A DNA stretch of 64,000 nt from Catajapyx aquilonaris (taxonomy: Eukaryota), in contig JYFJ02001079.1 of NCBI GenBank assembly GCA_000934665.2, positions 1 to 64,000 on the forward strand, given 5' to 3'. The notes beneath the pieces are model-generated. The model saw only the letters and a program-made list of their open reading frames with translations. It was not told the DNA's origin and made no database searches. The position numbers were made by a program, and so were the translations under genes. Shown piece by piece: positions 1 through 64,000 of the stretch (within the stretch, counting starts at the first letter, position 1; each line of letters opens with the position of its first letter).

Positions 1-996
1 AGGCGGAAGAGACCAGTCGCTGGGTCGTTCGCGTCACTCGTTCGATTTGTAAACAGTGGCAACAATGAAGCGCTCTCCATGGGCTGATGTTTGAATTGGC
101 CCGCCGGACAGGGTTGCCAGGTAACGCCGCCGCCGCCGGAAAAAAAACATTCAGCGACGGCTAATATGTCCAGCACTGTACACAGTGTTCAACATAAGCG
201 TGATTAAGGAAAATAATGTCGAAAATATGACAGGGTTTGAAGAGAAAAATGCGATTTTTGTGCAAAAACATGCACAAATTTATACTAGGGGTAAGATAAC
301 TCATGCGTTTGGGGGAGGTGGCTTGTGACCTTGGCAATCAAATAATTAACCCCGCCCTCTACCTGTCGACCAATCAGGATTCGATTTCAAAGGCGGTGGG
401 CGTTATGTTCTAAAACTTCATTTAAAAATAGACTCACTTTCAATTTAAACATAAGATAATGCTAGATTTTTCAACTATAAAAGTCGACTCAAAATCTAGC
501 CCTTTTTTGTATCTATACATCTACAACTAACAGAGGAATAAAAGGTACCTGCACTGTTCCTTTTGGACAAAAAAGCAAACAGTCTCTTTTATTCTGGACC
601 TTTTTATCCTCTCTTGTTTCAAAGTTTAAATCGCGTTTTTCTGGCCCACTTTGCATGCCCTTTTTTTGCGATTTCATGTGCAGGACGTATGCAAAATCGG
701 TTCAGTTAAGGGCGGCGGCTGAGGTCAATCGATGAAGAATTCAAGGGGTCGTTTAAATAATGTGAGGTGCGAAAAAAAATACAAAATTAAACGTAGTTGT
801 CTGACCACTAATGCGATCAAAATGGTAGACTCAAATACGATTGATCAAACTATTTTAAATACTTTTTTTCTAACTTCTTTTTTTTGCATTGAAGTTCATG
901 TTAAAAGGTTGCGAAATCTAGGATTTTATTTTGGAGAGAAATGGACAAAGGAGTTGTGCAGTATTCAAAGACCAAAATCCAATTTTGAATAGAACT

Positions 997-998
<2 letters not shown>

Positions 999-1040
<42 letters not shown>
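999..1040. repeat. (TC)21 microsatellite
   Basis: Perfect dinucleotide run read directly. Confidence 0.97.
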
Positions 1041-1045
<5 letters not shown>

Positions 1046-2676
1046 AAAAGAAACCTTTGTGTTCAGATTAACTTTTTGGCTTAAAAATGGCGGCGGACTG
1101 AAAGGAAGTTGGATTTAAATTTGGTGCAAAAATGACCTAACGTACGGAATTATCTATGCTGAAAAAAGTTGACAACTTTAAAAATCGTTGCTAACTTGAA
1201 GAACCGGCAGTTACTTTAAAATTCAAATACTTGTAAAACTAGTGTAATGCGTATGGCTTCAAATTAGGGCAGGCTTGTTCATGCTTGGAAAACAAGTGCA
1301 AAAAATTCAGTTGGCAACTCTTAATTTTTGCAAAAATTAATTATTCAAAATATTAAGGATGAAGTTACCAACTTTATCCATCAGGTTTACGCACTTTTCA
1401 GGGGTGACTGACTGCAATGATTCAATTTAATGCCAAACATTACCTAGCCAAAACCGAACGCAATTAAAATAATTGAACTCATTATTTTCGACTGCCACTT
1501 CATATCATTGATATTAATTATACTAATAATTGCAAGCAAAGCAAGCAACAATACATTTTCGAGATCATCGTTCACATTTTCAGGTGACACTTAAAATGAC
1601 TTTAAACATCATACACAATTAAAGTAAATTAAAATAGTGTGAAACTGAATTAATATGATGAAAAACTAATGAAATACGTAGCGTATTTAATGTGCACTGT
1701 AAAATTATTACGTAACAAAAAGTTAATGAAAAATAATGTAACGTAATAATGAGTGTAAAACAATGCGAATAAAATGTAATAATTGTAATTTAAGTTTAGC
1801 TTCATTTAAATTCTTTCGTTTTATTCATATATTATTTTACACTAATTATTACGTAACATTTTTCATTAACTGTTCTTACATAAAAATCTTGCACATTTTA
1901 TTTAAAATTATTGTTTCCAATAATTTAAATAAAACAGATATAATTATTTATATTGATTAATAAATAAGCACTAATAAAACAGCATACAGTAAATATCAGT
2001 GAAACAATATTGTCAATATTCGAGGGTTGTGTATACTGATAATGGGCGCGGCCATGTTTGGTCCAGAACCAATAACCAAAACACAACAATTATGTCACAT
2101 TTTGCCTTCCAAAAATTACAACCTACGCTCCTAGCACACTCTAGTGTCCATTCCAGCCTACATTTTTACCCAAAACAAAAGAGATGCCTTTCATCCCCAT
2201 GCATGTTTGCCCTTGCATCACATGCACTCCTACCGTCCACGCACAACAATGTGTTCACCCTACCCGAAACGACTCGCGTCGCAACCATTTTGAAAAAAAG
2301 AAAAAAAAACTGTTGGGGTTGGGCTGTAAAAAGTGCGATATCTCCATTAGGAAGCGGTTAGGTTGGTAGGGTTGGCAGAGGAGGGCAGGGGCAGGCAGGC
2401 AGTGAAATGGGTCTGGTGTGACGTCCACCCAAAGAGCCCCTCTCTCTGATCAAAAAGGGGTTTGGGAGCCGAGTGGGGAAAATCAGGCCCACGTGAGTCG
2501 CCTGCAGAGAGGGCCTAATTTTTTGGGGGGAAAGGAAAAAAGACGACCCAACGCTGCTTGCCCACACAAAAGAGCACACCTTCCATTTTCAGACACGCTG
2601 GGAGCAGAGACGAAGAGAAAAGAAAGGAAAGCTCTAACTCTGCCCGTTTGGGGGTTTGGCCATACTCAGATAAGAT

Positions 2677-3620
2677 AGCATCGGTTTAGAGATAGTATCG
2701 AATTATCGATTTAGAAATATTCCATTTGGAGATAGTATCGAATTATCGATTTAGAGATAGTATCGAATTATCGATTTAGAAATATTCGATTTGGTGATAG
2801 TATCGAATTATCGATTTAGAGATAGTATCGAATTATCGATTTAGAAATATTCGATTTAGAGATAGTATCGAATTATCGATTTAGAAATATTCGATTTAGA
2901 GATAGTATCGAATTATCGATTTAGAAAGAGTCGCTGTATGGACTATCGATTATAAATAAGAGTATTTTTATGGAGAGAGAATTGATTTATAAATTATAGA
3001 TTTGGATAGTATCAATAAAAGAGTATCGATATAGAAATTGTCGATTCTGATAGCATCGATTAAAGAGAACCTATTCTGTTAGTATCGATTAAAGAGTATC
3101 GATATAGAAATTGTCGATTCTGATAGCATCGATTAAAGAGAACCTATTCTGTTAGTATCGATTAAAGAGTATCGATATAGAAATTGTCGATTCTGATAGC
3201 ATCGATTAAAGAGAACCTATTCTGATAGCATCGATTAAAGAGAACCTATTCTGATAGTATCGATTAAAGAGAATCTATTCAGTTAGTATCGATCAAAGAG
3301 AATCTATTCAGATAGTATCTGTTAAAGAGAAAATAGATTTAGAAGTATCATTGAGATAGTATCGATTTTAAAATACCTACATAGAGAGAATTTATTTAGA
3401 AAATCTACCTTTCAGAGTAAGTATTGATATAGTGATAACCGAATTAGAGTATCGATTTAGAGACGGCATCGATTTAGAGTAACGATATAATGTGCTTATC
3501 TGTTTAGAAAAAGTATCGATACAAAAAATATGATCGAATCAGTATAAATTTGTTGATGTTATCGATTGATAGTATGGATTCAAAGATGATGATACCATTT
3601 GTGTTATTGTATGAGAAATA
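2677..3620. repeat. ATCGAT/ATCGA-based compound minisatellite
   Basis: 25/40-bp units (gatagtatcgaattatcgatttaga +/- aatattcgatttaga) at ~2690-2925, ~73-bp and ~30-bp units at ~3010-3330, degenerate tail to ~3620. Confidence 0.93.
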
Positions 3621-4399
3621 AGACCTAAAATGGACCCCAACAATGCAGATGGCAGCCAAGTCTGTCCTTGGAGAGACACCATTCCTGTGCCCATCATCCA
3701 AATGCGGTATTTATGTCGTTACGGTCCCGACGTCATCAAGGAGAGTTGGCACCGATTGGCTCAAATTTTCTGCTTAGCTCTTAGACGGAAAGAGGCACAA
3801 AAAATGGAGGAAAAGTGGGCAAGAGATCAAGATGGAGGATGTGCCTTTTTGGAGTGGGTCCGGTGGTCGTCTCATTTCCATATCGATTCCTATGTTGGAG
3901 AGGATGAAAGACAAGTGGCACGGAAACCTTCCAAGGAAACTTGTCAGGATGGGTATGGGAGGTTAAAAATGGCAGAGGTTTTTCAGAAGAATTGCGACGT
4001 GCGTTTGGGGACTGCGGACTTGGCCAATATCCATAAATTTTGCCCGGAATCCTCCAGGCCTCCAACTCCAATGGCTCTATTTCCTGGGATCAGGTCAGCC
4101 ACCCGAAACAACAGTGTTTATGTCCTCGGAAGATTGGAGTAGTTGTGGATAGTACCGATCTGAACTATGGCTTATTTTCCGTCCATATAATGAGGCTGGA
4201 GGGGATGTTACACAACTTATCATATATGGAGAATTGGATCTGTGCTTCTATTTGTCCGGGGTGAGTCATCAGCTAGCTGCTTGTACTGTAGTACGACTAG
4301 TAGTGGGAGCGGTACGCAAAAAAACCGCATTTGATGATAGAAGCAAGCCACTTTGCACACTTGCTCCTAACTCCTCATCCAACACAGAGTTGCAATAGT

Positions 4400-4530
4400 T
4401 CAAAATAATTATTATTCGAAATATCATTTCGAAACCATTATTGTTCAAAATATCATTTCGAAATCATTCTTGTTCGAAATATCATTTCGATCGAAATAAT
4501 TCTGGTTCGAAATACCATTTCGAAATGTAT
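4400..4530. repeat. Short degenerate TTCGAA array (~30-bp unit)
   Basis: Repeated ttcgaaatatcatttcgaaa; same family as 5200-6330. Confidence 0.85.
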
Positions 4531-5177
4531 ATATGAATTAAATCTCGAACAACACATCACATCTTTGTGAGGGACATGGTACTACGTGGACACTCGAGCT
4601 TTTGACAAAGGGTTCGACTGAGCTTATGTGGCTGAAAATGTCAAGTAAGGTGTCCGCCTCCTATAGCAACCGCGGTGTTAACCAATTTTCCGCAACACAA
4701 GGCGCGCCAATCACCTTTCACCACCCGGTTATTGTAAACCTTCCCGAGTAATTGACATCCTCCTGCCAACAATATCAACCCCCTTCCTCATTATTGCTCC
4801 ACCACTGCATACCACTAGTTACACCCCCTTTTGATTTTTTAAAAAGACCTTGACACCCCTTCAGCTCTCTAGCGTCTCTTCGGTTGGTTCACTGGACCAA
4901 AAGGAAATGGGGTCGCGTCCAATGAATTTGGGTTCCTATCATTGTGCCTCCGGCCAGTGGAAGTAAATTTGCCGTCGGCTTGGAAACGGCTGCCCAGAGG
5001 ACGGGGGGACCAAACGGACAGTCTGTTTCGAAACTAACAAAAAAATAGGCTCGCGCATAGAATTTTCATTCTGTTTCCAAACGTGAATAGAAAAAGATAC
5101 AAAACTTTATGCACTACATAGAATAAGGGGGGATATTGGCACAGACCTTCAAATGTGTGGGTTTATTTGATTTGGGA

Positions 5178-6330
5178 GATAAAGCCTGATTTGAGAAAAA
5201 AATGGTCGAAAAATAAGTTAGAAATAATTCACTTTCGAAATATTTCGAAATAATGTTCGTTCGAAAAATTTCGGAATAATTTTCGCTCGAAATATTTCGA
5301 AATAATTTTCGCTCGAAATATTTCGAAATAATGTTCGTTCGAAATATTTCGGAATAATTTTAGTTCGAATTAATTATGTCGAAATAATTTTCGTTCGAAA
5401 TATGTCGAAATATGTCGAAATAATTTTCGTTCGAAATATGTCGAAATAATTTTCGTTCTAAATATGTCGAAATATGTCGAAATAATTTTCGTTCTAAATA
5501 TGTCGAAATATGTCGAAATCATTTTCGTTCTAAATATGTCGAAATATGTCGAAATAATTTTCGTTCGAAATATGTCGAAATATGTCGAAATAATTTTCGT
5601 TCTAAATATGTCGAAATATGTCGAAATAATTTTCGTTCGAAATATGTCGAAATATGTCGAAATAATTTTCGTTCGAAATAATGTATGTCGAAATAATTTG
5701 CGATCGAAGAATCACTTCAAAATCATTCTCGTTCGAATTATCATTTTTCTATATCGTGCTTATTTGACATATCGGTTCGATATAATATTATTCTTATCTG
5801 AAATATCAGTGCGATATAATATTATTCTTATCTGAAATATCATTTCGATATAAATATTATTCTTATCTGAAATATCATTTCGATATAGGGTTATTCTCAT
5901 TCGATAAAATTGTGGGCTTATATGATTAAGGTTTTAGGCATTTAGGGGATAAAACCTGTTTTGTGAAAAAGTGATCGAAAAATCAGCTCGAAATTATTCT
6001 CGTAGGAAATATCATTTCAGAATACATTATGGTTCAAAAATTAATATTAGAAATAATCCCGTTCGAAATATTTTTTTTTTTCAATGAATTTCTTCGATAT
6101 ACTTCTTGGTCGAAATATCAGTTCGAAAAACTCCCCCTTCGAAATATCACTTCGAAATAATTCTAGTTCAAAAATAAGTTCCATATATTTCTCGTTCGAA
6201 AAATCATTCCGAAGTAATTCTCGTTCGAAATGGATAGTCGAATTAAATATTTTCAATATATCTCATTCGAACTCATCATCGATGACATGGTCGATATATC
6301 GAAATATATCGAACTTTTCTATCCTATCCA
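5178..6330. repeat. TTCGAA/TCGAAAT minisatellite (26- and 36-bp units), two blocks each preceded by a related head sequence
   Basis: Units such as cgaaataattttcgttcgaaatatgt; ORF 5464-5835 is merely its translation (MSKYVEIIFVLN repeats). Head copies at ~5178-5230 and ~5948-5999. Confidence 0.92.
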
Positions 6331-8391
6331 AGCCCGTGTCCTTATTTGGCACACCACCAAGTACATTTCCCTCATATTTTACTCCTCTTCCCTAATGACA
6401 ATTAATCGTCGCCACCGGCGCTTCATCAACCCTGGAGATAGACACTGCCAAAAATATACGTCGAGAGAGACTTGACAAATGTCCCTGGCAGTCCCCCGGT
6501 GTCGGAATAGCCTCCAGGATTAATCGCTGATGTCGGTCCGTCCACAATAGAAATAATTCTCCTGCTCAAAGAGCGTGCAATATTGGGAGGGACACACTGA
6601 ATACTGAATCATGCAAAGGTGGGGGAAGGCGGGGAAGGGAGAGAAAAAAAGGAGGGATACATCCAGCAGTCTGATTGGCTCCATTCTATCCACGTAACCT
6701 CAACTAATATTTATATGTTGCAGAAAAAGTGTAGATTTGTTTTGACACACCACCCTGTAGCAGCTATGTAATGTAGTTGGTCGCTTAATGCACTTTGATT
6801 AACTTACAATTAAATAGTGAATGTACAGGCCCAAATTCAATTGGCTAAAAGTTGTGAAATTTACTCTAAAAATTTTGTGAGTGGTTTTCGACTCTATTTG
6901 AATGAATTTCACACTTTCGTTCACTCTTTTCCAGCTATTTGAGTGCAAAACACTATTTCATTTGAGTCAAATATATTCACTCAAATGGAGCCGTTTTCAC
7001 TCAAATTGAGTCATTTGTCTCTATTTCTTCCACGTTTAGATTGACTCCCACTTTTTTCGAGTGACATTATTTTCGTGACAGGGAATTTATTATTTTCACT
7101 CAAACTGTCTTTTCACTCAGATTGAGTTGAATTTTCACTTATTTTGAGTAAGGTAATTTGAGCCCAAAAAATAGCTAAAAATGAGCTCGTTGACCACCAA
7201 AAATGCTAGTGGCCAATTAATTTTCAAACACTATTCTGTAAATGAAAATAGTGTTTTTTTTTCAAAATTATTTATATGTGCTATTCCATTTGCATGCCGT
7301 CAGAGGTGCCAAAATCCCTTTTGAGTATTAACAAGCTTAAATAGCTGATCCAGCACAGTTGGTTTGGAAGCGGGAGGTGGGGGAGGGAAGTGGGGAGAAA
7401 ATAGCACATTTTGGACGCCTATTTTTTCGGTCAATAGCAAAAAAAAATTTGCTTTTGTAGAGTGATTTTGGTGGCATTAGTCCGGTTTTTGCGCAACAGT
7501 CAACAAAGCACTTGTATTTGACTGCGAAACGCGATTCATTAGCGCTAATTGTTGAATTAACCAAACTAATTCCATATTTTGCCTCAAAATGAAATAATCC
7601 TGGCCAGGCATTGTGGTTGGGATTAGTAGTGGAGGGTTGGGAGTTGGAGGGGGGAGGGAAATAATAAAATTCGCAAAAATAGGTAGAACTGGTTTTACAA
7701 GATATTGTGTGTAGGTTAGCATGCAAAAAAAAAATTGGCTACTGTGCAACATGGGAATCGTTTTTAATGTAAAATATGAGTGAAATTTGGATTAATTGTT
7801 TCTAAATTTATGGTGTGAAATTTAACTAACAGTTAAGATCATTCCTGAAGTCAATTTATCATCTGACATATCCACAACACTACATCGACAAAACCCTGAC
7901 AGCCAATAACCTCTGAAAATCGCACACTGGCTTAGGTGGCCAGCCAATATCTCGCCTCAGAAACCTCTAGCGACCCTTGACCTCACCCCAAACTTCTCAA
8001 ATCCCTTGGTGCCCTTTTGTGCCTTCAGGTGGTTGTAAGTACCGTACCCACAACACCTTTTGTGCCTTTTTTTGTGGGGAACAGTTGAGCTTCTGGGACT
8101 GACATCCAGAGAGGAGCAGTTTCCTTGATGTTGAGAAGAGGAGACCAAAAGAGCTTCTCTCCTCTCACTGCTTTGATGCTCCTGTCGAGGAAACCAGATC
8201 TAGAACCGCGAAGAGGGTTTTGGGCTGAGCTGTCTGTAGGGTTTTGGCACCAATATTACTATTGCAAGGTCACTCAGGCTCATGGTGAAATAATACGCAT
8301 GTTCGGGACCAGTTATTGACACCAGTCTGCAACCAGGCCGTTTCACGACTGACTCACAAACTGCCCCCCAGGTTCACGCCCGGAAGACTCC

Positions 8392-9093: not shown

Positions 9094-9543
9094 GCAGAGT
9101 AACCTAACTATCCTAACATGATCTAACCTAACCTAACCTAATCTAACCCAAGAAAACAATCTTATTTCCACCCCTGCACTTAAGCTTCGTTCAAACAGCT
9201 GCTTTTTCTAATGCGCAAGTGAGCTTTAGAAGCTTCTTAAAGCTTTCTAAGCAATTTTATGAAAAAGCGTGGCTGTGATCAGGGTTAGAAATACTAAATA
9301 TACCCAATCGTGTTTCTTCGATCGCAAATAAAATCGAACTTATCGAAGTATAGATGGCGGTAACAAACACACGCACCTTTGGCAGGTGGAGAAAAAGTAA
9401 TAACATCATTGGTCGAAGCTTTTAGAGGAAATGAAAGAGTTCCAATAGGGGTGTTTGCAAAACCTCTCTGATCGACCTGTTGCCTTTCTACATGCAACAA
9501 AACACTAGACACGACACGTCTATCCGTGTTTTTGTGGTGGTGG

Positions 9544-12479: not shown

Positions 12480-13430
12480 GACAACTGTGCTGTTACGATA
12501 AAGGTCGCAGCTAATTTTGACTAACAAGAGCTGATAATACTGCTATTTTTGTAACAGGCTCATTTTGGAGAAGTGTATGGCTAATAACTGCTATGTCAGA
12601 GAGGAGACCAGGTTTATACGACGTAGTAACAGCATGGCGGATAACTGCTATATAAAATAGCACACACAATTTTTGATAAAATGGGATAAAATATTATTAT
12701 CATTTGCTGCTATTTTTGAACAGCAATTTTTGCAATATATGACCGATAACTGCCGTTAGAGCAGACCCAATTTTGGAGTAACAGTATGGCCGATAACTGA
12801 TGTTATAAATAGCAGACAATTTTTGATATAACTTTAATGTAGGTAACTGCTACGTTTAAAGAGCAGATGAGTTTTGGATGACAATATTTTTGAATAACAA
12901 CAGTGCACATCACTGCTACTTTTGTATAGCAGGCACAATTGGGGAAAGTGTATGGCCAATAACTGCTACGTTAAAGAGCAGACCCATGGTTTGGAGAAAC
13001 AGTATGGCCGATAACTATTATTATAAATCGCAGGCAACTTTTGACAAGATTAATGTCGTTAATTGCTATTTTAACTAGCAGATAATTTTTGAATCACAAT
13101 AGCTTAGATCGCTTTTGTTTCTGAATAGCAGACAATATATTTTTGAGCAACAGAGCCACTGATAACTGCTATTATTAAGTATTTTAACTGCTGTTTTAAA
13201 TAGCAGAAAATTTATGGCAAGAGCGTATATCCACCATTCTGACTGTGAATAGCAGACAGAATTTTCGAACAACTGTATGTAAAAGTAGCAGTTAAAGGAG
13301 CTTTTGTTGCTCAAAAATGATTTCCTACTATTTTAGATAATAGCTGTTATCAGATAACTGCTACTTTTAAGTAAGAAACACAGGCTTGAGCAACAAATGA
13401 TAGTTTCGAATATTAGATGCTATTTTCGAG
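12480..13430. repeat. Old degenerate array (ataactgct...tagcagac...tttt...gtatggccg)
   Basis: Recurrent aactgct, agcaga and gtatggc motifs at roughly 40-50-bp spacing. Confidence 0.75.
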
Positions 13431-14224
13431 ACATTATGTCAATCTTTATCACCAGGTACCCTCAAACCCTGCACAATGGGCCTCAAAACAGGGTTCTCAC
13501 CTGTCACGCACCTTCTCTCACCCCATAAACAATTCAACAACGCACTATCTCACGTTCATATAGCCCGTTCAAAATTAATTATTTCCCCCCAATCAGAATC
13601 ATTTCCGCATCAGTTCCCGCCCATAAAATAACGAGCGATTTTCGCTCCAAATTTTTGGTCCAAAAAATTTCGGAAGGAAGAGGTGATGAACGACACATTT
13701 CCTTGGTGGGCAACATGGCGGCTTTTTTGGGGGGAGTAGGGGGCAGCCATCTCTGCAATTCAATGGGTCCAACTTGGCCTCCCAAAGTGGGGAGTCGCCA
13801 TTATTCACTTATGTGAAGGCCCGGGAGCGGAAAGGAAAAGGCATTATCTCTTTTCAAAGGCAGAATGGCTTGGGCTACAGAGGGGAGGGGAGGGTTGGGA
13901 TATATCACACACTAGGCCTATATCGGACTGCTATCGGCCTACTAAAAAGCAAAGGGGGCGACTAGAGAGAGGGGTTTTGGCTGTCGCCCCATCACAATAG
14001 GCCCAGGCACACATTTTCTTACGGGCCTGTCGGACCGAGGAACAGATTAAATTCATGCGCTCAACGCTCCAGCGACTGACGTTAGTTATTTGGTGGCTCC
14101 GCATGATAGCCTCTAACTTATGGGCGGAGCTTAGAGGAAGCCCGCCTAGGAGAGTATCAGATGTGCGCGCCACCTTATGAGAGGGGATACCAAGTACCTC
14201 ATGGACACAAACGTAGGTGTTAAG

Positions 14225-14905
14225 CTACTAATATAGCGAATAAACATCACTGCTACCAGGTGTAGCGAATGATAATCACTGCTACCAACTCTAAATAATA
14301 GTTATAATTGGTAACAGTGATCTGTATTGGTTATAGTTGGTAACAGTGATCTGTATTAGTTATGGTTGGCAACAATGATTTCTATTTGCTGCATCTGGTA
14401 GCAGTGATTTTTATTCGCTGCATCTGGTAGCAGTGATTTTTATTCGCTGCATCATTCTGGTAGCAGTGATCTTTATTCGCTGGATCTGGTAGCAGTGATT
14501 TTGATTGTGATTATCACTGTTACCAACTAAAAATAATATAGTCATAGTTGGTAGTAGTGATCTGTATTAGTTATAGTTGGTAGCAGCGATTTTGATTATC
14601 ACTGATACCATTAAAATAATACAGGTAGTTATAGTTGGTAAGTGGTCTGTATTAGTTATAGTTGGTAACAGTGATCTCTATTAGTTATGATTGGCAACAA
14701 TGATTTCTATTTACTGTATCTGCTGGTAGCAGTGATTTTTATTCGCTACATTTGGAAGCAGTGATTTTTCTTCGCTACATTTGGAAGCAGTGATTTTTAT
14801 TCGCTACATTTGGAAGCAGTGATTTTTATTCGCTACATTTGGTAGCTGTGATTTTGATTGTGATTATACCAACTATAAGTAATACAACTCACCGCTACCA
14901 GCTTC
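14225..14905. repeat. TGGTAGCAGTGAT minisatellite (~29-bp unit) containing inverted units
   Basis: tttggaagcagtgatttttattcgctaca x3 at ~14750-14840; reverse-complement units atcactgctacca at ~14247, 14276 and variants at ~14513, 14598. Confidence 0.9.
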
Positions 14906-41054: not shown

Positions 41055-41063
41055 ATAATAATA

Positions 41064-41137: not shown

Positions 41138-41138
<1 letters not shown>

Positions 41139-48821: not shown

Positions 48822-49138
48822 CTCGCTGCGGCACCCGGCGTTGCCCGGGAAGAAATGAATGAAGGGAAAACACCTGCCAGTACCCCCGTCAACTGTCTGT
48901 CTTTCTGTGTGTCCGGCCACCAATGCCATCTGTGGTCCTGCTACTCCAACACCTTGAACCTCTCCCGCCTGTATAACGGCAACCGTCATTTGCCTGCCAT
49001 CTGTCGTCAACCCCCAACACCTCTATCCTTTCCCGGCATGGGGGTGGAGCACAGATGGCAGGCAAATGACTGTTGGCAGGCGGACAGACAGACCGATAGG
49101 CAGACAGACAGACTCACATTCGGCTTTATTTATATAGA
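48822..49138 (-). mobile_element. Non-autonomous Helitron (317 bp), copy 2
   Basis: Collinear with 37375-37679; same 5' A|TC end; 3' CTAG mutated to CGAG; longer (CTGT)n tract. Confidence 0.9.
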
Positions 49139-49249
49139 TTTATTTAATTATTTGATTTACCTGCAATTAAAAATACCCAATTAGAAACTATTTTTAAAGG
49201 CGATTAAAATAAAATTGAAGTATACCATGATGTGCATTATTGAAAGGTT

Positions 49250-49480: not shown

Positions 49481-50291
49481 ACAATATGCTCTATTCATGA
49501 TTGTACTATACATACTGTACTGTACAATACCTGATTGTTGTTCCAGTTGCTTGTATCGTCCAATAATGCTAGACTACCCTTCGAAAAAAAAATCGCATCA
49601 ATCTCTATGCAAAAAAACCGGGGGGGCCTATTTCCTATTTTATAACCGAGCTTGAAACTAACCTGCGCAAAATCGATCCAAATCCATTCAATAATACATG
49701 AAGCGATTGGAGGAAGTCGCCCATGTCACTCCCCCTATTTTGCCTCTGATCAATAAGAGAAGGGCACCCCCCCTCTCTCTCCGCTTGCAAACACAATTCT
49801 GCAGACAAGTTACGGCTATTTTGCAATTTTCCACCTGGGGAGAGGCGGCGGACCTTAGTCTCCCTCATGCATAATGCTTCCCATAGTCTTCCTGAGGGAC
49901 TATCTGAAAGCGCCTTTGGCTTCGGAAGTAATGCGAATGATGAGCCACAGGTGAAAGCTCCACCGGACACCATTAGAAAGCCATGCAAAATGCATGGATA
50001 GGTTGGAGTGTGCTGTAGGAGGCTGAGGGAGAAGAGCTGTTTGGGAGTAAGGCCAGCTGAGAGTGGCGGAGGAGGATGCTTGGGATTGGCTCAAGAACTG
50101 GCTTTGGTTGATTGGAGGATTAGTTCGGATGGTCATGGCTTGTAATTAATGGTGGTTAAATACGGTATATGATTTGGACCAAATATGACAATGACATAAC
50201 TTTATTGTCAAGATATTATAAATCGCATGCGCAGAAAATATCCTTGTGGATTTCATGGATATCCACGATATTTTCATAGATCTTATGGATA

Positions 50292-50357
50292 TCTATATAA
50301 ATAAAGCAGTTTGTGAGTCTGTCTGTCTGTCCGCCTGCCCACCGTCATTTGCCTGTC
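50292..50357 (+). mobile_element. 5' fragment of the same Helitron family, copy 3
   Basis: A|TCTATATAAATAAAGCAGTTTGTGAGTCTGTCTGTCTGTCCGCCTGCC...TTTGCCTGTC. Confidence 0.88.
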
Positions 50358-50829: not shown

Positions 50830-51450
50830 GAACATTTGTACGTATTGATACATACAAATACTCCATGTTTATTGATATCGGTAAAACTACGTATTCTTTT
50901 CTGTATCGACCAAGTGATCTATCAGTATCCATCAAACGATACATCGACAGTGAGCAAATGGCATATTGATACTGACTAAATGATATATCGATATTGATCA
51001 AGCAATATGTAGATACATACCATACAATTACGTCTGTATCGATCAAGTAATCTATCGGTATCTCTCAAACGATACATCAATAGGCCTACTGATCAAATGA
51101 CATCGGCTTTGACTAAATGATATTTTTATATTGATCAAGCGATATATCGACACATACCAGATACGTCTGTATCGACCAAATGATATATCAGTATCTCTTA
51201 AACGATACATCGATATTGATCAAATGACATCGATATTACTAAATTGTACGTATATAACAATATAATGGCATATAATAAAACGATATATTAATATACCGGT
51301 ACACTAGATAATTCCATCGATATTGATAAACGATATATTAATATACACCAGATATATCGATATTGGCCAAACGATATAATTATCGGTGTCGATCAAAATA
51401 TTTTCTATATATCCATCAGCTAAGTTGCAATAAATCGATATATCGGACCA
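50830..51450. repeat. Degenerate ATCGAT/ACGATA array with ~130-bp internal duplication
   Basis: ctgtatcga.caa.t.at.tatc.gtatc...aaacgatacatc occurs three times (~50901, 51034, 51167). Confidence 0.82.
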
Positions 51451-52214
51451 TACTGGAATCCTAGAATCAAATGTTGTCCAAATTGCTCCAGATCGTTCCG
51501 TGTCCGCTGGATTCCCGTATGAACACCCCAGACAATTTCAGCTCCCAGAACCAGCGAAGTGACTAACCCCCGTCGGTGCCTAGGAATTGATTGGTTACCA
51601 GGCGAGAGTTGGGTGGTGGGTGGTGTAAGGGAGGGAGGGCGGGAGGGGGGGGGGAGCTATAATGTGCCGTTGGCAGATATGAATGACTTCTATTATCAGG
51701 CGCGCTTGGCGAGCGCTGAACTTGATCGCCAAACTCATCTTTTCAATCTGGAGAATCAGCGGGACATCGGTCCAATGATGCAAGGCTAACGCGAGGTGGG
51801 GAGAGGCGGGGACGAGGGGGGTGGAGGCGGATTCAATATTATTATTTTTTTGGAGGGTGGGGATTGGTCCCCCTGCCTTTTATTCAAACGCGAGAATCAC
51901 AATGACAGCCATGGACTGGCCTGGATCCAACACAGATGCAGATCAACAATGCGGACCTTTTGGGTGGAATCCGGCTCATAAATAACTCGCTCTTTGTAGG
52001 GGGGGGAAAAAATTTCGTGCTTAGACTGCTCTGTCAGGTTTGCCTGCGATGGATACTCAATCACCGGCGATGTGTTAACGACCCTTCGATGAGATAGATC
52101 TCACTTGCTAATTCGGGTTCAAAATGGAGCGGTTTTGGATGCATTTGTCTTCTTCGTGTCAACAACTGTTCAGAAGAATGGAACGGGCCAGATCTGGCAC
52201 GTACTGGTTAGTAC

Positions 52215-52800
52215 CTTGGGTAATTCCGTCATGCGTTGGATAATTTCGTCATACTTCCAGTAATTACGTCACACATTTGGTAATTTCGTCACGCAGCGGG
52301 TAATTTCGTCATACCTCGGGTAATTTCGCCGTACCTCGGGTAATTCCGTCATACGTTGGATAATTTCGTCCTACTTCGAGTAATTTCGTCACACATCGGG
52401 TAATTCCGTCGTACGTCGGTTAATTCCGTCGTACCTCGGGCAATTCCGTCATACGTCCGTTACTTTCGTCCTTCTTCCAGTAATTACATCGCACATCGGG
52501 TAATTCCGTAATACCTCGGGTAATTCCGTCTTACATCGGGTAATTCCGTCACACATCGGGCAATTACGTCAGACTTCTCGTAATTACGTCACACATCGGA
52601 TAATTCCCTCGGACGTCGGTTAATTTCGTCATACCTCGGGTAATTTCGCCGTACCTCGGGTAATTCCGTCATACGTCGGATAATTTCGTCATACTTCGAG
52701 TAATTTTACATCACACATCGGGTAATTCCGTAGTACCTCGGGTAATTCCGTAGTACCTCGGGTAATTCAGTCACAAATAGTGTAATTCCGTACGTCTTGA
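52215..52800 (+). repeat. 20-bp minisatellite family CGGGTAATTCCGTCATACAT, block 1
   Basis: About 29 diverged units in register. Confidence 0.95.
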
Positions 52801-54574
52801 ATAATTCAGTGTCAGAATTAATCTAATGCGTTCCAGATCGATCTGGATCGTTCCAGATAGAGTCCGGATCAATCTCGTTCCAGATCATGTTATCTGACCT
52901 CCATATAATTGAGATAGGAATCATGCAGGCATGACCCTGGTTGTTTCCAATTGATCCGCGGAAACGATTAGGGTCACGCTCAATTTATTACTAAATGTTA
53001 CATGCAGGTAATGACACTATTTAGCCTCCCCCCCCAGCATGTATCGAAATCCTAGTTCGTTTCCACCATATGCATTAGGTCACATGTTGGGGGCAGTATG
53101 TTGTGTTCAGCTCTCTCTCGCTCTCTATTATGTGAATGTGGGTGTGTGTGTGTGTGTGGACTGCATGTGCTCTGCGCATCTGGTCCACTCAATTAGTCCA
53201 CTATGCTAATTCCATCGGCATCACCTGTCTGGTTGAATTCAAAGTTACGCCCTTTTGAACTCTCCCGTATGAATGACAGTGAACACACACACACACACCC
53301 ATACTCATACATACTGAGCTAGTCCCGGTTTTGAACCTGGTTTCCAAAAAAAGGAAATTTGCTCCAGGCTGGCGGCTGAATGTCCTAATTAGTGGGCCAT
53401 CTACACCTGGAGTGTAAACGTAACGTGAAACTCAGTAACGAGAGTGGTAAGCCGCAAAATCCGGCCAGAGAAATGTGCTTTTCCTCGCCTTTTTTGCAGG
53501 GGTTGGAATGAATGCGTTGTTATTTCCAAACAGGCAAGTTGAAAATCAGTTTTTACCTACTAGTGAAACGTGATCGTAGCTTAAAATCAGACTAGGCACA
53601 AATTTGCCAAAATTTGGCAAAAAATGGCATCGAAGCGACCACCGATGGTGAAGTGCTGAAGTAAGCGAGTCGCCACCCATGAGGTGGAGCCCCGGCTCCC
53701 GGAACGGCGGAAATTGAAATTCCGTGGAAGGACGCGGTCGTTTTTTTAGCGTTTTTTTAGTTTTACAAAGTCCCTCCGCACCTTTTCCAAAAACCAAAAG
53801 AGGTTTGCAAATATAGAAACCACGGGCTAAATTTGGACACCACTCCCAAAGCTGTAGGCCGTACAGTGCGGGAGGAGTTTCCATGACAGTCGGCCGTTAA
53901 TACTGTAATATCGATAGAGCTGCTAACCAACCGGTTACACTTCATCGGAATCTAAAAAACGTTTGTTGCTATTTATTGCGGGTTAAGCTCTGATATCTGT
54001 CCACAGACATACAGACAGAACCGTTCTGTAGGACTTTTTCCGAGAAGGAAAAGTCTTAAAGGTGCGGTTTTCGGATTTTTCTCTAAATCATCAGCACATA
54101 ATCCATCAGTGTGCCAAGTTTTAGCACTCTCAGTAGTCCAGAAGGGAGTTACCCCGGACGTGCATACCAACAAACTTTCCTGTTTATACTATGAGAGACA
54201 AATGTGTATGCAGGGAATGGCGCATAGATAAGACCTATCTATCGGGCATCAGATGAGCAGTCTTCTGAGTAAAGACTACAGCTGGAAGAGGAATTCCTCA
54301 ATTAGGTGAATTATTCCGGGATTTTCCACTCGACTGATCTCCCGCTAGAGTTTTCATTAAAACTAGAGGTTACGTATACATTCCCTCCTCCTCCTCCTCT
54401 CCCCATCTCCCCGATTTCCAACCAACCGCTTCCCTAAATCGCATTTGCCTTCCCTCCTGCTTTTCCATGATCGTTGCACTCATTCCCACCGGAATGTTGA
54501 CGCAACCAGTGTATTTTAAGGGACTCCAAAACTGACGGTATATTCACACGGTCTAACTGGCCGTTTTTTAACGT

Positions 54575-55190
54575 TCTCAACAATGTTTGAAGAGATGGAG
54601 AACTTGAGGTAATTTGGTCATACCGCGGGCAAGTCCGTCAGCATTCCCCAATTCCGTTTGCTACTCTGGTTATTCCATCATATTTCGGGCCATTTCGTCA
54701 TACATCGGGTAATTCCGTCACACCTCGGGGTAAATCAGTCATGAGACTCATGACTCATGTAAATGACTAGGAGTGTTTAGCGGTTCTTAAGGCTCTCAAC
54801 AATGTTTGAAGAGACTGCGAGTTTTGGTGGGGTAGTTTTGTCATACTTCGGGTAATTCCGTCATACATCGGGTAATCCCGACATACATCGGGTAATTCCG
54901 TCATACATCGGGTATTTCCGTCATACATCGGGTAATTCCGTCATACATCGGGTAATTCCGTCATACATCGGGCAAGTTCGTCATACTTTGGGAAAGTACG
55001 TCAAGATTGGGGTAATCCTGTCATACCTAAATTCCGTCGCACATCGGCCAATTTTACCATACTCCGGGCAAGTCCTTCATTCTTCGGGCAAGTCCGTCGT
55101 ACCTTAATACCGTCATACATCGTTCAATTCCGTCATACCTCGGGTAATTCCGTCATGAGTCATGACTCAGGTAAATGACTAGAAGTGTTC
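54575..55190 (+). repeat. Same 20-bp family, two head-array-tail cassettes in tandem
   Basis: Head tctcaacaatgtttgaagaga at 54575 and 54794; tail gtcatgag..tcatgactca.gtaaatgactag at ~54738 and ~55152. Confidence 0.9.
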
Positions 55191-56819
55191 CAGAATATTT
55201 TTCTCTTTCTTTCCGGTAGAGGGCAAAGTTAGAAAATAAGACTTGCGTGGCTTCCCAGGGATGTAGCTGCAGGCCGATGACCAGAGACGCCTGATATCGG
55301 TGTTCGATAAGAAGTGCTCCAGGAAGAGAAGAGAAGAGAGCTTCTTTCTCTTCCCTCCACCAAAAACCTCCCTTTTGCTCAGGCCAAAGGAAAAGGAAAA
55401 GAAGAAGAAGAAGAAAAGTACTGGAAGAACTTTCCTTGCTTGCCTCGAGGTTTTTGCGGATTTTTTTTAGCTACAAAGTACTGGGAGTAACCTGGCTAAA
55501 ACCAGGCCCGATTTTAATGCTTACGTTGGTTTATTCCAGGTGGCAGAGAGGGATTGGAAAAGCACAAGTTTTCGAAGGACAGGATTAACGTGTGGGATGC
55601 ACAAATGTTGGGCGTAACTATTGGGTCCAAGTATTGTCCTAGAACCTAGACTAAAATTTACTAGTAGTGCAGGTCATGACGTAGGTCTACACCTGAACTA
55701 GAGGTGTCAATAAATTTTAATCTTAATGGAAATTTACACTATATCAAAATTAGACAAGATCTAATCTAATTTTGATATTGTGCAAAATGCATTTGATGTT
55801 TCAAAATTATTATTAAAATTTTCTGATATTAATGAAATTTATAAAATTAAATTATTTTGAAGCTATAAAATATGCAATATACAATAATAATAGTAATTAT
55901 AATTAATAAATAAAACAATAAAATGAAACAAAATGAACAGATAAATAATTAAACAAATAATAGAACTAACAAAAATTAAATGAATAATCAATTAAGTATA
56001 TAAATATAATAAAAAAACGCAATAAAAGAAAATTAATTAATTAATTAAAATATGACGATGTAAAATTCATCTTCCTAAAATAAATTGTGCATATTGTTCT
56101 TACGTCCCCAATTTATTTAATGAATTAATTTATATTTTCAAATAAGGCACATATTACTAAATATTCATATCTTCTCCCTCTCTGTCTATTGTTGTTGTCA
56201 CTTTTATAAGAGCCTATCTTTTTGAAGTGAACATTGATTAATTAATTAACTGTAATTGAAATGGACATAATTAAAAGCTGCTTGGTCGACATTGGCCCAC
56301 ACTTTTGCTGACGCCATCGCCAGTCCAATACCATGTCCGCTAATGAAATGACAGGCCGAGTCCAACAATGTGTTTGGCGTCGAGTCATTTCCCTTTGGAA
56401 TGATTTGCCGATAGTGCCCCCCCCCCCCCNNCCCCCCCCCCCCCCTTCCCGTTGCTGTGCTGACCCGTCACAATAAAGCAAGTTGTGTTACACGCACCGA
56501 GTCTCACTTTACTGCGCATTGTCCCAGGGTTTTGTATCGAACTATAGAAGGTAGGGGGTGGAGCAGGGAGGGAGGGAGGGAGGCGTCGTATACTGTATAG
56601 TCAGGATACGATTGCTGCTTCATTAGCATGGAAAGTAGCTCCGGGGAAATGGAAAGTGCACCGAACCTCATCGCTCACAATAAACTTGTCTGGAGAAGTA
56701 ACATCCGCTACTCACTTTCCAGTAACAAAGATGGGTCTGGCCTAGCTCGCCCTCTATTGTTACTGATTGTGAGTTTTCTCAAGCTCTGAGAGTTTAAATT
56801 AAAATTTAGAGACAATGCG

Positions 56820-58440
56820 TAACACCTCGGGTAATTCCGACATACTGTACCTATATCGGGCAAGTCCCTCAAATTTGTGCAATTCCGTGACACATCGGGC
56901 AAGTCCGTCATGGTTCGGGCAGGTCCGTCATACATCGAGCAATTCCGTCACACATTGGTCAATATATTTCGTCATGTGCTGCACATAGGGCAAGTCCGCC
57001 AATATTCGGGCAATTCCGTCACACATCGAGTAATTCCGTCAAGATTCGTGCGATTCCGTCACATCGCGGGTAATACCGTCACATCTCGAGTAATTCCGTC
57101 ACATCTCGGGTAATTCCGTCATTGGCTACTTCGGGTAATTCCGTCATTGGCTACTTCGGGCAAGCAGGGGCGGATTAGCCTTCTTTGCCGCCCTAGGCCA
57201 GTCCTGAAATTGCCGCCCCCGGAAACATCAGTGCAGGCGGGGGGGGGGGGGGACACGGTGNGTCATCGCACCCCCTATACCATGCCAGGGGCGATAGATG
57301 ACGTTCAAAGATAGACGTAGGCTACACCTTGCTCACAGCCATTGCCAAAATCGCGTATTTAATTAAAATGAGAGTTAATTTAAATGAAATATCCTTCAAT
57401 GAAAGAGTAGAACAAGTCGGAAATGGCGGGGAGGAAGCCCGCCGCAGGCGAAATTTTTTCGTTTAAGGTGCTTAGGTGAATGTAACTGACTGGAAGATTT
57501 GAATAGGTGTGTCGGGGTGTGTATTTGACGAAATTGGTACCGTAGCACTTTTTTCATGGAAGTGGAATTACAGAGTAACATGGGGCTGTACGAAATTATG
57601 GTATTTTCTGTGTACCATTATGGTTCATTTGGCACGCCCTACTCGTACCCTTAGGGGAGCCACCTCGCATCTCAAACATTGCCACATCGGGGCCCCCTAG
57701 AAAGTAATTTCAGATTTAGCCCCCCCTCCCTCCCCAAACCGAATGAGCCCGCCTCAGGCGGAATTTTGTTGTTGTTCAAGGTCACACAATCTTAGGTGAA
57801 TGTAGGCTAATAACTGAAAAAGTACAGTGGAAGCCTCCTACACTGTAAGCGCATATATAAGCAAGTAGTAGAAAGACCGATCCCTTCATAAGTTATTTCC
57901 AGCAGTGCCAATGTCGTCGCAAGCGCAGTTGAATCCGGATATAACAGACTTGTCTGCTATTATGTGACTGCACAATCCTTATTCAGAACTGCACATTTGG
58001 CTTTTAGAACTGCACGCTACAGTAAGTCCCGAGAAGTAGTTCTTACCTAATCAGTGCGACTTTTGTCCTGTTTCGAGTCACATAATTTTTGGATTCGCCC
58101 CCCCCCCCCCAGGGGGGCGCGCCCCACAGTTTGAGAACCGCTGCTTTAGCCGTCTGCAGCCTGTAACTGTTTTATTATCTGTCTCCAAAAGCTGTCTGAC
58201 TGGCTCGAAAATACGTGCTAATATAATATGAATAATAATACTGCGTTGCTTAATATATTGATATAATATTGCTTTATTTAAACTTGCCGGTTGCCGCCCT
58301 TCAAAATATGCCGCCCTAGGCCATGGCCTAGTGTGGCCTTACGGGTAATCCGCCCCTGCGGGCAAGTCCGTCATTGGCTACTTCGGGCAAGTCCGTCATA
58401 CTTCGGGCAATTCCGCCATACTTCGATCGGGCAATTCCTA
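56820..58440 (+). repeat. Same 20-bp family, block 3, interrupted by a hAT insertion
   Basis: Units at 56820-57164 resume at 58359-58440 (ccgtcattggctacttcggg on both sides). Confidence 0.9.
57165..58358. mobile_element. Non-autonomous hAT element (1194 bp)
   Basis: TIR CAGGGGCGGATTA ... TAATCCGCCCCTG; 8-bp TSD CGGGCAAG at 57157-57164 and 58359-58366; subterminal TGCCGCCC repeats. Confidence 0.93.
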
Positions 58441-60790: not shown

Positions 60791-61834
60791 TCATTTATTT
60801 ATTTTCATAACAGAAACTTGACAAACTAACAAACTTTGGCTTTATAATAATATATAGATAAGATAGAGCTTGGTATTAAGATGACAGTGAATTCTGGCTT
60901 TCTGATTGGTTGCAGACGACAGATTTTCAGCATATGTTCCTGATCCAAATTTGCGTCCTACAAAGGCACCCTATTTTCGCCCCTCCCCTAAAACTCCGAA
61001 AATATATGGCCCTCTAGTAAACAGGAAGCAAAACTATTCCTATGCAAATTTCACCCTATCCCGGAAAAGGGATTAATCAAATTCACCGGGCCGGAAAACC
61101 GGCCAGGATAATCCTCCAAATCTTGCAAAAGGGGGGGGGGGGGGGCGTAAGTTTACTTTTCGAATCTTTGGAATGAATAACGAGCATTGCTTCCGACTCA
61201 AAATTTTCTCCACACTTTAAAACCATCGAATTTATAGCTAAAATTTTCAGAGGGGGGGGGGGGTCAACGAAACGTCAACGATTTGTATGGCGGCCATTTT
61301 GGTTCCAGGGTTACTTCCTGGGGTGGAAAGTTGGAGCCATCAATTATTGCGGGACTAGAGACAATTAGGAGCGTAGGACGATAGACTATTGAACCCTCCG
61401 GAGTAAAGCTCGGGTAGGGGAAAAAAACAACAGAGGGTCTATAATGCAAGCCTATCTCCGGGGCCTCAAATCACCTCCAACTCTTGAAAACGCTCGTTAG
61501 AATGATTTAAGCGGCGTTTAAAACGGCCGCATTGTTAGCCCTTCCCTCTCTCTTAATTGCGAGGTTGCAAATGGACTTGTCTTTTCATGATCGTTGCTAT
61601 AAATTTGGATCCCCAACTTTCCAAAAAGCGGGTGGAGTGGGAGGGAGGGAGGGTTAAATTATGTACCTGTCTCATGGCAGTGTAAAAACCATTCATTGCT
61701 TGGAACATTCGGTTCTGTAGGGAAGGGTTGTTGATTAGGGATAGCCAAATGTAGGGCTGTTTGGCTGGAAGATTCATAATATGAATCTGCTAGCCGAAAC
61801 ACCCCACATTTGGCTTCATATTATAAGGGTGTAC

Positions 61835-62350
61835 GAGATTCATCATGATTCCTCGATGACTCGATTCGATTCACCCAAAACTCATTCATTACAATTTGTC
61901 CAAGATCCAATGATTCACCATAGATTAATTTATTATTCACCTTAGAGGCGATACTATTCATTATTATCCCCCCCCGCAGATTCAATATTATTTGACCAAT
62001 ATTCAATACTACTTGCCCAATAGTCAGTGATTCATCCAAGATGTCATTATGATTCATCCTAGCTGCAATTTTATTCACTACGATCTCCCCAACATTCAAT
62101 GATTCACCCTACAGATTAAATATGATCTGATTGTGATTAATTATGATTTGACTAACGTAAGAGTCAACGATTCATCTAAGACTCATTATGATTTGCCTAA
62201 AGTCAATGATTCATCAGAGACTCATTATGATTAGCCTGAGTCAATGATTCATCAGAGACTCATTATGATTCACCCTAGATTCAATTTCATTCATTATCAT
62301 TATTTCCTTAAGGTTCAATACGATTTGGCCAAGATTCAATGATTCGCAAG
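61835..62350. repeat. Degenerate ATGATTCA array
   Basis: agtcaatgattcatcagagactcattatgatt repeated at ~62200-62270; many gattca motifs elsewhere. Confidence 0.82.
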
Positions 62351-63397
62351 AAATGGAGATGATTTCTCTCCAATAATTTTTCACGAAAATTTATTGAAGA
62401 TAACAGCTATTAATAGCAGTTATTTTATCCAAAAAATATTTAAAAAATACCCTCCCTGTATTTTCCTGGGTTCATTGATGACACGCCAAAAACCTTTCCG
62501 CGGCTTGTGCAAGCGAGGGTGCATTATTCTTCCCTTATCGGGGGTGGGATAGGGGGGGACCTGCCTGCCATATGTTACACATATTGCACTTTTTGCTGCC
62601 CATTACTTCACTTTCTAATGGGATGCGATTATGTCGGTTTGGTGGGTGTGTGTTTACCCCATAAGCGGTGGCCCCCCTGTTTATATGGTACAGTCTATTC
62701 TTCCTGGTGCCAGATGCCTGTCAGCAAATAAACACATCCGCTCACAACAATCGTGTCAGTGATGTATTGTTACGAGCACTTTTCTGTAGTGCGCCTGTAA
62801 AGTATCCGGCGTGTTTGGCAATAGAGGTGTTTGAGTTGCATAGGAGCCAGGATATGTTTTCATCCATTTTCAGTCCCACCTTTTTTTTCCTTCTCAAACA
62901 TTTTGAAGATGGAAAAAAGTCCTCGAAAAAAAAAATTTCACGAGTGCCACTGAGCTTTTGGGAAGCCCCCTTAGAACGAGGGAGAAGAGGCTTGCCTTTC
63001 CTTTGAGACAAGAAATACAATAACAAGCAGCGTCAATGGCACGGAAATGCAGCTTGGGTTAAAAAAAACTATAGCTATGCCAAGCTAGCTAGTTTTTCCA
63101 AGCCTGCATGCGGTCCACATGGGGATGACTTGATCTGAATTTCAATCTTCCATACACGGTTTGCGGTCTGGTTGGCTCATTTCAAAAAACCGAAGGGGAA
63201 ATTTTTTGGGGTCACGAATAATATTTTTTTCGATTGGATTCGTATCATATTCAGAGCATAGAATTTTTTTTTAAAATGAGAAGCAGGGAATATAGCCAAA
63301 TATATGCCCTATAATAATAGAAAGGTTTATTAGCTGGTATTTCAGGCGTTGTAAAAATTATTAGATGCTAATATCAGGTCGTATACCAAATCGATTG

Positions 63398-63492
63398 TGT
63401 ACGATTAGGTACGAATGTGTACGATTGGGTACGAATGTGTACGATTGGGTACGTATGAGCACGATTGGGTACGTATGAGTACGATTTGGTAC
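63398..63492. repeat. 20-bp GTACGA minisatellite (~4.5 copies)
   Basis: gtacgattgggtacgaatgt units. Confidence 0.9.
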
Positions 63493-64000
63493 AGATGCTA
63501 TTTTACCACTATTTCAAGTGGAAATTTAGTAGTGTACATTACGAACTGTTTGCATTGCGCGTTATTTCCCCAGTTGGCAGGTCCATATTTCGGCGAGGTT
63601 TTTTTTTCGTCTCTGGCAAAATAGAGCTAGGCCATGGCTTTTCTGCGAGTCTGATCGCGCAAATGATATTTATGGGCTGGGTCCCATGTTCAACTTGTGG
63701 GAGGGCTACAAGGCGTCATGTATCACACTCAAGCGCTTTAATGGCGGAACCCCCCCCTTTCCACCCCACTTATTATTTTCCAAATACTAATCATCTCGTG
63801 AGCCGGAAACAAAGCAGGAGGCGAAAAAAATGGCGCGGGGGGGCGGCTCGTAATTTGTGCATCAGGAATCCCATTAGTTTCGGGTTCTTTTCCAGGAGGG
63901 CTAGGCAAGCAGGAACTGTTAAATAGGACTGAGTTGTGAAATTTCTCTATTTGCGAAAGAAATGAATGGCGAATTTGCAAAAAGGTTTTCATATTTGTGT

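Follow-up and report, generated by a model that had tools for sequence, protein, structure and literature searches.

The first 64,000 nucleotides of contig JYFJ02001079.1 from Catajapyx aquilonaris (GenBank assembly GCA_000934665.2; forward strand, hereafter the window) alternate between GC-richer, unique blocks and AT-rich or repetitive spacers, and the question this locus raises is whether the spacing of the alternation is maintained. A sequence-only reading of this DNA had proposed that it is, with the blocks (islands) as constrained regulatory modules and the spacers as filler of selected length. Selection on the length of gene-desert spacers, if true, would be a new constraint on non-coding DNA and would offer a handle on module spacing in chromatin. 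We find that the alternation is real, that random interspersion combined with minisatellite turnover matches its dimensions, and that the window gives no evidence for selected spacing; the earlier observation is confirmed in part, and its interpretation is supported in part at most. With a probability of roughly 0.6, the window is ordinary interspersed non-coding DNA, intergenic or from a long intron, shaped by minisatellite turnover.

GC-rich blocks and AT-rich tracts

GC counts in 50-bp bins were segmented with a two-state binomial hidden Markov model (HMM), which divided the window into 119 segments in states of 28.5% and 45.9% GC. The window as a whole has a GC content of 40.0%, an observed/expected CpG ratio (CpG o/e) of 0.87, and four N. 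The window and one example of an island can be described as follows:

1–64000: gene-free eukaryotic non-coding DNA made of segments of about 46% GC and AT-rich segments of about 29% GC
2040–2680: example island, GC 0.49, no tandem repeat, flanks of GC 0.23–0.28

The 18 islands listed by the sequence-only reading are what they were said to be in composition. Their GC fraction is 0.42–0.51 (pooled 0.468) against 0.386 in the rest of the window, only 0.4% of their bases are in tandem repeats against 17.6% elsewhere, and their flanks are mostly AT-rich. In direct readings of 1900–4600, 4380–6420, and 15800–22600, unique blocks stand between arrays or AT-rich tracts, and throughout the first 23 kb the islands are separated by AT-rich or minisatellite tracts. 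When the window was compared to itself with tandem repeats masked (blastn, word size 7, E ≤ 1), no island-to-island match was found among the 70 listed of 72 weak, distant pairs.

Copy number was checked over 13401–24000 (10.6 kb) at a likeness of at least 80%, using the contigs of DNA runs X1, X2, and X4, which stem from one sample that is possibly the source of the window itself. A fourth DNA run of that sample, X5, contributed only 3 short pieces. Extra contig copies occur in this region only at 21836–21900, at 22605–23312, in the minisatellite at 17.3–17.6 kb, and at the poly-C near 19.0 kb. Because extra contigs pile up only at these places, the five islands of the region are single-copy at this level of likeness.

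Segment lengths and periodicity

The 58 internal GC-rich segments have a mean length of 722 bp (median 500, quartiles 312–850, range 100–4250 bp; coefficient of variation, CV, 1.05), the 59 AT-rich segments have a mean of 361 bp (range 50–1150 bp, CV 0.83), and the CV of the start-to-start distances is 0.74. Shifted exponentials fit both sets of lengths (Kolmogorov–Smirnov p 0.73 for the GC-rich and 0.82 for the AT-rich segments). The spacers had been claimed to fall in a narrow range of lengths; these near-exponential lengths are the outcome that the same reading had named beforehand as contradicting it, and its own 11 contiguous spacers run from 159 to 2529 bp (CV 0.61), with periods of 930–3000 bp (CV 0.36).

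A quasi-period extending across the whole window, also part of the original claim, did not hold either, as the tallest periodogram peak between 700 and 4000 bp was matched in 50% of 2000 segment shuffles, the control that the sequence-only reading had asked for. The three tallest peaks of the GC periodogram lie at 1422–1488 bp, and the autocorrelation of GC content falls below zero at 500–900 bp (about −0.1) before reaching a second maximum of +0.11 at 1300–1700 bp. The spectrum of the tandem-array mask shows nothing at 1300–1700 bp (p 0.27) and is highest at 4267 bp (p 0.17). A band of the same mask at 3800–4800 bp (p 0.006, chosen post hoc) was dismissed on the maximum statistic, for which p is 0.17.

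In a filtered version of the segmentation, AT interruptions shorter than 150–300 bp were absorbed and tiny GC pieces dropped, and a geometric null was cleaned identically. The filtered islands range from 350 to 4800 bp with a CV of 0.86–1.00, and the filtered periods have a CV of 0.62–0.74; neither value is below the null, which for periods is 0.56–0.60. Given exponential unfiltered lengths, periods whose regularity does not exceed that of the null, and islands of such unequal size, a maintained spacer length is unsupported. What survives is a light upper tail in the lengths of the AT tracts and one borderline regular run, and there is no window-wide period.

Tandem arrays and the origin of the AT-rich tracts

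Tandem Repeats Finder (TRF) returned 111 rows, which were merged into 56 arrays and, by further merging, into 36 clusters, covering 14.5% of the bases of the window. The main arrays are:

2680–3331: minisatellite complex with units of 25/65 and 29/73 bp and ATCGAT/TATCGATA cores, with degenerate copies to about 3580
4398–4526, 5221–5708, and 6093–6231: three arrays of a TTCGAAAT-type family around the unique block 4560–5170
14230–14903: 29-bp minisatellite in both orientations (inverted arrays)
15308–17548: TATCGATA-bearing arrays with 39-, 29-, 38-, 36-, 29-, and 20-bp units, flanking the island 15870–16800
22830–23048, plus strand: 67/77-bp minisatellite with (GGTTA)n, i.e., TTAGG-type, runs
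29922–30836: largest single array, GC-rich, with 25.6 copies of a 36-bp unit; a spacer-type element within the GC-rich state
34259–34829: 26-bp TATCGATA-bearing array
42126–43346: C-rich 119-bp repeat arrays with strong strand skew
52212–52791, 54685–55156, 56855–57160, and 58379–58425: 20-bp family in four to five arrays

The units are mostly 13–119 bp long, with matches of 58–100% and higher-order periods. Arrays measure 26–915 bp (56 arrays) and merged clusters 30–1221 bp (36 clusters). For the 56 arrays, the CV is 1.0 for array length and 1.1 for the gaps between arrays, and under four merging schemes the gap CVs of 0.71–1.10 are no smaller than those of random non-overlapping placement (p 0.14–0.83). 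Tandem arrays make up 21.8% of the AT-rich state and 10.9% of the GC-rich state, where they are found, e.g., at 29.9–30.8, 42.1–43.3, and 52–57 kb.

Local copying is visible in several of the arrays. Around the TTCGAAAT-type family, a segment consisting of flank plus array has been duplicated, such that about 5170–5220 resembles about 5938–5990. The inverted arms of the 29-bp minisatellite (14230–14317 and 14723–14810) are 88 nt long and 76% complementary, and the array at 34592–34744 is weakly similar to the 20-bp array at 17373–17548.

Of 27 AT-rich segments at least 300 bp long, 12 consist of TRF array over at least 25% of their length. The other 15 were searched with relaxed TRF settings against composition-matched nulls: four scored above all 40 nulls, seven reached p ≤ 0.05, and the summed score over the 15 tracts was 1889 against 769 ± 91 for the null. 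Present or decayed arrays would then make up about 60–70% of the larger AT tracts, a share that suggests that these tracts originated by slippage and local duplication. Among the non-array tracts, 12 of 210 ordered pairs exceeded the 99th percentile of the null (2.1 expected) and none exceeded the null maximum, so we treat the likeness among them as mostly compositional. The spacers are accordingly not all unrelated to one another: likeness among the non-array tracts is barely above the composition null, and the arrays include two local families.

We infer that the AT tracts originate by birth and decay and that their spacing is neutral. Slippage during replication, unequal exchange, and the local copying of short AT-rich units, at times in inverted orientation, would create arrays within unique DNA of about 46% GC; many of the units are built around ATCGAT, TTCGAA, or TATCGATA palindromes. 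The arrays would reach lengths of a few hundred bp, with a maximum near 1.2 kb, after which point mutations would degrade them to unique-looking AT-rich DNA, leaving the unique sequence interrupted by AT-rich tracts that are mostly minisatellite arrays or their decayed remains. Since both kinds of segments are typically a few hundred bp long, the eye perceives an alternation of about 1–2 kb. A ceiling on array growth would also explain the light upper tail of tract lengths without selection on spacing.

The published pattern that comes closest is short-period interspersion. Unique DNA of about 1–2 kb with repeats of about 0.2–4 kb is the form described in a passage of PMC3186762, and an excerpt from PMC4009782 gives single-copy islands of 300–1200 bp among repeats of 50–2000 nt. 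The window resembles this short-period (Xenopus-type) interspersion in having GC-rich segments with a median of 500 and a mean of 722 bp and arrays or clusters of 26–1221 bp. It likewise resembles euchromatic minisatellites, which turn over by slippage and unequal exchange, in its 56 arrays with local families, duplicated flanks, and inverted copies; unlike these, an unusual share of the independent arrays here is built on one palindrome, TATCGATA.

Two of the array families are accompanied by further local features. The arrays of the 20-bp family (52212–58425) follow one another at about 2.5, 2.2, and 1.5 kb with unrelated unique DNA between them. The GC skew over 42001–44000 is −0.55 and −0.25 across the C-rich 119-bp repeats, which carry CACCTTGCCCC.

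Absence of coding and structured RNA signals

Stop-free frames of at least 75 aa number 159 in the window, of which 146 were scanned against Pfam and 13, lying inside tandem arrays, were omitted. None of the 146 reached a Pfam cut-off. Sub-threshold matches were to BofA (19.5 bits, cut-off 26.1), zf-RING_10 (17.7, cut-off 31), and SMEK_N (17, cut-off 27), and these were rejected. A further 278 frames of 50–74 aa, chosen by excluding those with at least 30% tandem repeat or containing N, had no Pfam match at E ≤ 0.001. No transposable element (TE) protein domain appeared in the Pfam scans of the window's frames. A period-3 signal was absent, the maximum being 2.87 in 429 tandem-repeat-free stretches of 300 bp and 3.63 in shuffled ones. 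Coding exons or TE proteins inside the islands were rejected on the Pfam scans together with the missing period-3 signal.

The longest frame within an island (3615–4139, 175 aa) is, by our own estimate, of a length expected by chance, and it had no relative at E ≤ 0.001 among the proteins of 96–307 residues in a collection of 5.8 billion proteins. Across the whole window no tRNA was detected and no Rfam family reached its gathering score. Because no tRNA, Rfam, Pfam, period-3, or protein-relative match was obtained, we regard the window as gene-free non-coding DNA.

Points against random interspersion

Several results weigh against the reading of the window as randomly interspersed, neutrally evolving DNA, and we gather them here. 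The first concerns the spectrum, for which comparison with shuffled segments gave a divided answer: the tallest peak failed, as reported above, but the 1400–1700 bp band named in advance was positive (p 0.036), as was the autocorrelation at 1300–1700 bp (p 0.03; 2000 segment shuffles each). Against block shuffles the same band, one of 14, reached a z of 2.5–4.7 (p 0.000–0.017). The second is that the 26–36 filtered AT tracts (200–1300 bp) have a CV of 0.41–0.59 against 0.66–0.81 for the null (p 0.000–0.026). The third is the one stretch in which the alternation, at about 1.5 kb, is regular:

15851–22700: the only regular stretch, with five GC-rich blocks in the HMM segmentation (15851–16750, 17601–18150, 18951–19600, 20651–21350, and 21851–22700)

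Here the maximum local wavelet power has p = 0.0105 (2000 segment shuffles, taken over all positions and 18 periods). The fourth is that 8 of the 15 non-array AT tracts have no residual tandem structure at p ≤ 0.05. The fifth is a difference from the known system: the repeats of classical short-period interspersion are dispersed families, whereas those in the window are mostly locus-specific tandem arrays, with a single dispersed pair and two array families of local extent in all 64 kb, and most spacers in 13.4–24 kb are at single-copy contig depth. Finally, tandem-repeat-free GC-rich DNA is enriched for GAGAG (1.95-fold) and CNGCCATNDNND (2.8-fold), which is more in keeping with functional than with plain neutral DNA.

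The regular run at 15–23 kb

Block starts within 15851–22700 are separated by 1750, 1350, 1700, and 1200 bp, and the AT tracts between the five blocks measure 850, 800, 1050, and 500 bp. Wavelet power at a period of 1500 bp is 0.26–0.48 within 16–22 kb and at most 0.15 elsewhere. In the DNA contigs, the blocks adjoin their spacers directly and are present in single copy. Most likely, the run is a chance series of five similar intervals.

Regulatory-type motifs in the GC-rich blocks

A de novo k-mer count over 46 GC-rich segments placed GAGAG-type, GGGAGGG-type, and AAAATGGC words at the top. An excess of simple-sequence words is common in non-coding DNA. A set of Polycomb/Trithorax response element (PRE) motifs, taken from a section of PMC6735708, was then scanned over the 37.3 kb of tandem-repeat-free GC-rich DNA. 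Besides the two enrichments already given, this DNA is enriched for GCCATHWY (1.84-fold), RRGGYG (1.31-fold), GTGT (1.27-fold), and GAAAA (1.23-fold); four scrambled GCCAT control motifs were not enriched in it, and neither were the Zeste, Grainyhead, and site-A motifs. In tandem-repeat-free AT-rich DNA, GAGAG (0.74-fold) and CNGCCATNDNND (0.65-fold) are not enriched and GCCATHWY is (2.4-fold). Since the GCCAT-type enrichment extends to the AT-rich tracts, it is partly a general k-mer bias, and the island-specific part of the signal consists of GAGAG and the extended Pho-type word CNGCCATNDNND.

Among the 18 listed islands, 15 have a GAGAG site, 11 have PM (CNGCCATNDNND), and 9 have PF (GCCATHWY). 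GAGAGAG occurs 46 times against 3.5 expected, with 18 of the 46 in one (TC)n run, and the YY1/Pho-type word GCCATTTT occurs 20 times window-wide against 4.70 expected, a count reached in none of 100 shuffles. The GCCATTTT sites lie mostly on the minus strand (15 of 20; binomial p 0.04), have unrelated flanks, and are preceded by two bases that are mostly C or G.

The modest enrichment of GAGAG and Pho/YY1-type words hints weakly at regulatory DNA, and the islands may have a regulatory identity. The blocks are like Polycomb/Trithorax response elements in their enrichment for GAGAG, CNGCCATNDNND, GTGT, and RRGGYG, all from the portion of PMC6735708 used for the motif set. Unlike such elements, they show no enrichment for the Zeste, Grainyhead, and site-A motifs, and they share their excess of GCCATHWY equally with the AT-rich tracts.

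The palindrome TATCGATA and a boundary function

The 8-bp palindrome TATCGATA has 45 sites in the window against 1.31 expected, and none of 100 shuffles reached 45. It is found in at least six separate arrays with differing unit lengths and sequences (3024–3521, 15308–15785, 16894–17538, 34259–34743, 39837–40371, and 50986–51362), with 26 of the 45 sites falling within 15308–17538 and 15 sites lying outside TRF arrays. In the tandem-repeat-free AT-rich pieces, TATCGATA occurs 8 times against 1.0 expected and CGATA is enriched 2.6-fold. This enrichment accounts for the CpG o/e being higher in the AT-rich state (1.33) than in the GC-rich state (0.74).

In a passage of PMC12476417, TATCGATA is given for Drosophila Beaf-32 and TATCGA for Dref as their motifs, and the same passage describes Beaf-32 as not required for the formation of topologically associating domains. 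This raises the possibility that the TATCGATA arrays are insulator-like boundaries, or docking sites of a protein with BED fingers or one like it, which would separate GAGA/Pho-motif blocks of a Polycomb-regulated developmental locus. The number of sites and their spread over arrays with different units argue for it, as do the persistence of CGATA enrichment in AT-rich DNA free of tandem repeats, the adjacency of arrays to islands (e.g., on both sides of 15870–16800), and the GAGAG and Pho-type motifs of the GC-rich DNA. On the other hand, TCGA is carried in the unit of only 18 of the 56 arrays, the Zeste, Grainyhead, and site-A motifs of the PRE set show no enrichment, and a motif multiplied by slippage requires no function. 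We therefore give a functional reading of the TATCGATA clusters a low probability and consider the boundary proposal unlikely. In its dense clusters of TATCGATA/CGATA, the window is like the DRE/BEAF-32 CGATA clusters of Drosophila, the identity of the motif being taken from that passage of PMC12476417; it differs from those elements in that its motifs lie within tandem minisatellites in gene-free DNA.

One may go further and read the minisatellites of unlike units that share TATCGATA as fast-evolving arrays of putative DREF/BEAF-like binding sites that would insulate GAGA/Pho blocks, with the 15–23 kb run as a set of insulated modules. We hold this extended proposal to be quite improbable. 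If it were true, TATCGATA-sharing minisatellites in a gene-free locus of developmental type would not be junk.

Other alternative explanations

The model of the sequence-only reading takes the islands as constrained cis-regulatory modules and the spacers as exchangeable filler that selection keeps at a given length, as nucleosome-array or loop spacing. Its favorable side is that the islands are indeed unique, non-coding, and GC-richer, that the GC-rich DNA has an excess of GAGAG and CNGCCATNDNND, with GAGAG sites in 15 of the 18 listed islands, and that the 1400–1700 bp band, the 15–23 kb run, and the below-null CV of the filtered AT tracts speak for it. Set against this are the 159–2529 bp spread of the model's own spacers, the exponential form of the unfiltered lengths, a period CV that is not below the null alongside islands of 350–4800 bp, the absence of the signal over most of the window, and the occurrence of the GCCAT-type enrichment in spacers as well. 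On balance, we regard selected spacing as improbable. A modest residue is left by the 7 kb borderline regular stretch and by the many independent TATCGATA arrays beside GAGAG-rich unique blocks.

The regular run could also be the relic of an ancient tandem duplication, each unit of about 1.5 kb holding one island and one spacer. The five cycles with their start distances of 1200–1750 bp and the local power at 15–23 kb agree with such an origin. The masked word-7 blastn comparison, in which no similarity between islands was listed, speaks against it, and so do the differing kinds of spacers, some of which are arrays and others AT-rich unique DNA. We consider an ancient duplication very unlikely.

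That the spacers are germline-limited or under-replicated, i.e., removed from or under-represented in somatic cells, is extremely unlikely and has nothing specific in its favor beyond a short contig inside the 14.3–14.9 kb array that is somewhat shallower (15.0, 16.3, and 29.5 against 19.9–22.3, 30–30.8, and 35.2–36.9 in its neighbors, contig depth being unreliable locally), while contigs of all three DNA runs pass unbroken through island, spacer, and island (e.g., 19028–21573 and 17535–19026). Over 13401–24000 the contigs of X1, X2, and X4 show no differences and break only at arrays and homopolymers, and none of the eight joints listed, each with a short side of 18–26 letters at a repeat, removes a spacer from boundary to boundary. 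Contig depth showed no usable contrast between islands and spacers. With contigs spanning island and spacer, this earlier suggestion finds no support, which is not a refutation, as depth is one figure per contig. Ordinary interspersion with minisatellite turnover is thus the reading that we prefer.

Dispersed repeats, hairpins, and other minor features

Interstitial (GGTTA)n/(TAACC)n runs are present at 22830–23048 and at 9100–9148. TTAGG is the arthropod-type telomere unit. Summed contig depth in the bin 22605–22958 is 782–1568, compared to about 20–40 around it, and because of this depth the 67/77-bp TTAGG-bearing minisatellite is taken to be a high-copy family in the genome. Long poly-C tracts that include N lie at 19010–19042 (N at 19027) and 56419–56449 (N at 56430–56431). 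Contigs of the three DNA runs break at 19026–19028, and the length of that poly-C is therefore probably unresolved in the assembly.

The only clear dispersed repeat pair in the window is the following:

37362–37713, plus strand: dispersed repeat of about 350 bp, 87–89% identical to 48810–49170

Both full copies lie in GC-rich segments and not in AT spacers, where the sequence-only reading had placed the recognizable TE insertions. Within the repeat are a hairpin and a run of (GACA)n, and Rfam returned only sub-threshold hairpin matches to it. Its end recurs in inverted orientation at 50291–50357, 1.15 kb downstream of the second copy, and from this arrangement the element may be a foldback or one resembling a miniature inverted-repeat transposable element (MITE). 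A piece of about 37 bp at 23137–23173 is 92% identical to the inverted 45047–45083; since dozens of contigs match it with loose ends that are unrelated on both sides, this piece is a dispersed element or motif of very small size and high copy number. Near-perfect hairpins were also found: at 32640–32874 the arms are 38 nt long (97%) and 68 nt long (85%), and at 36426–36536 a palindrome has 55-nt arms and a 1-nt loop. To judge by their structure, both of these may be MITE-like or foldback elements.

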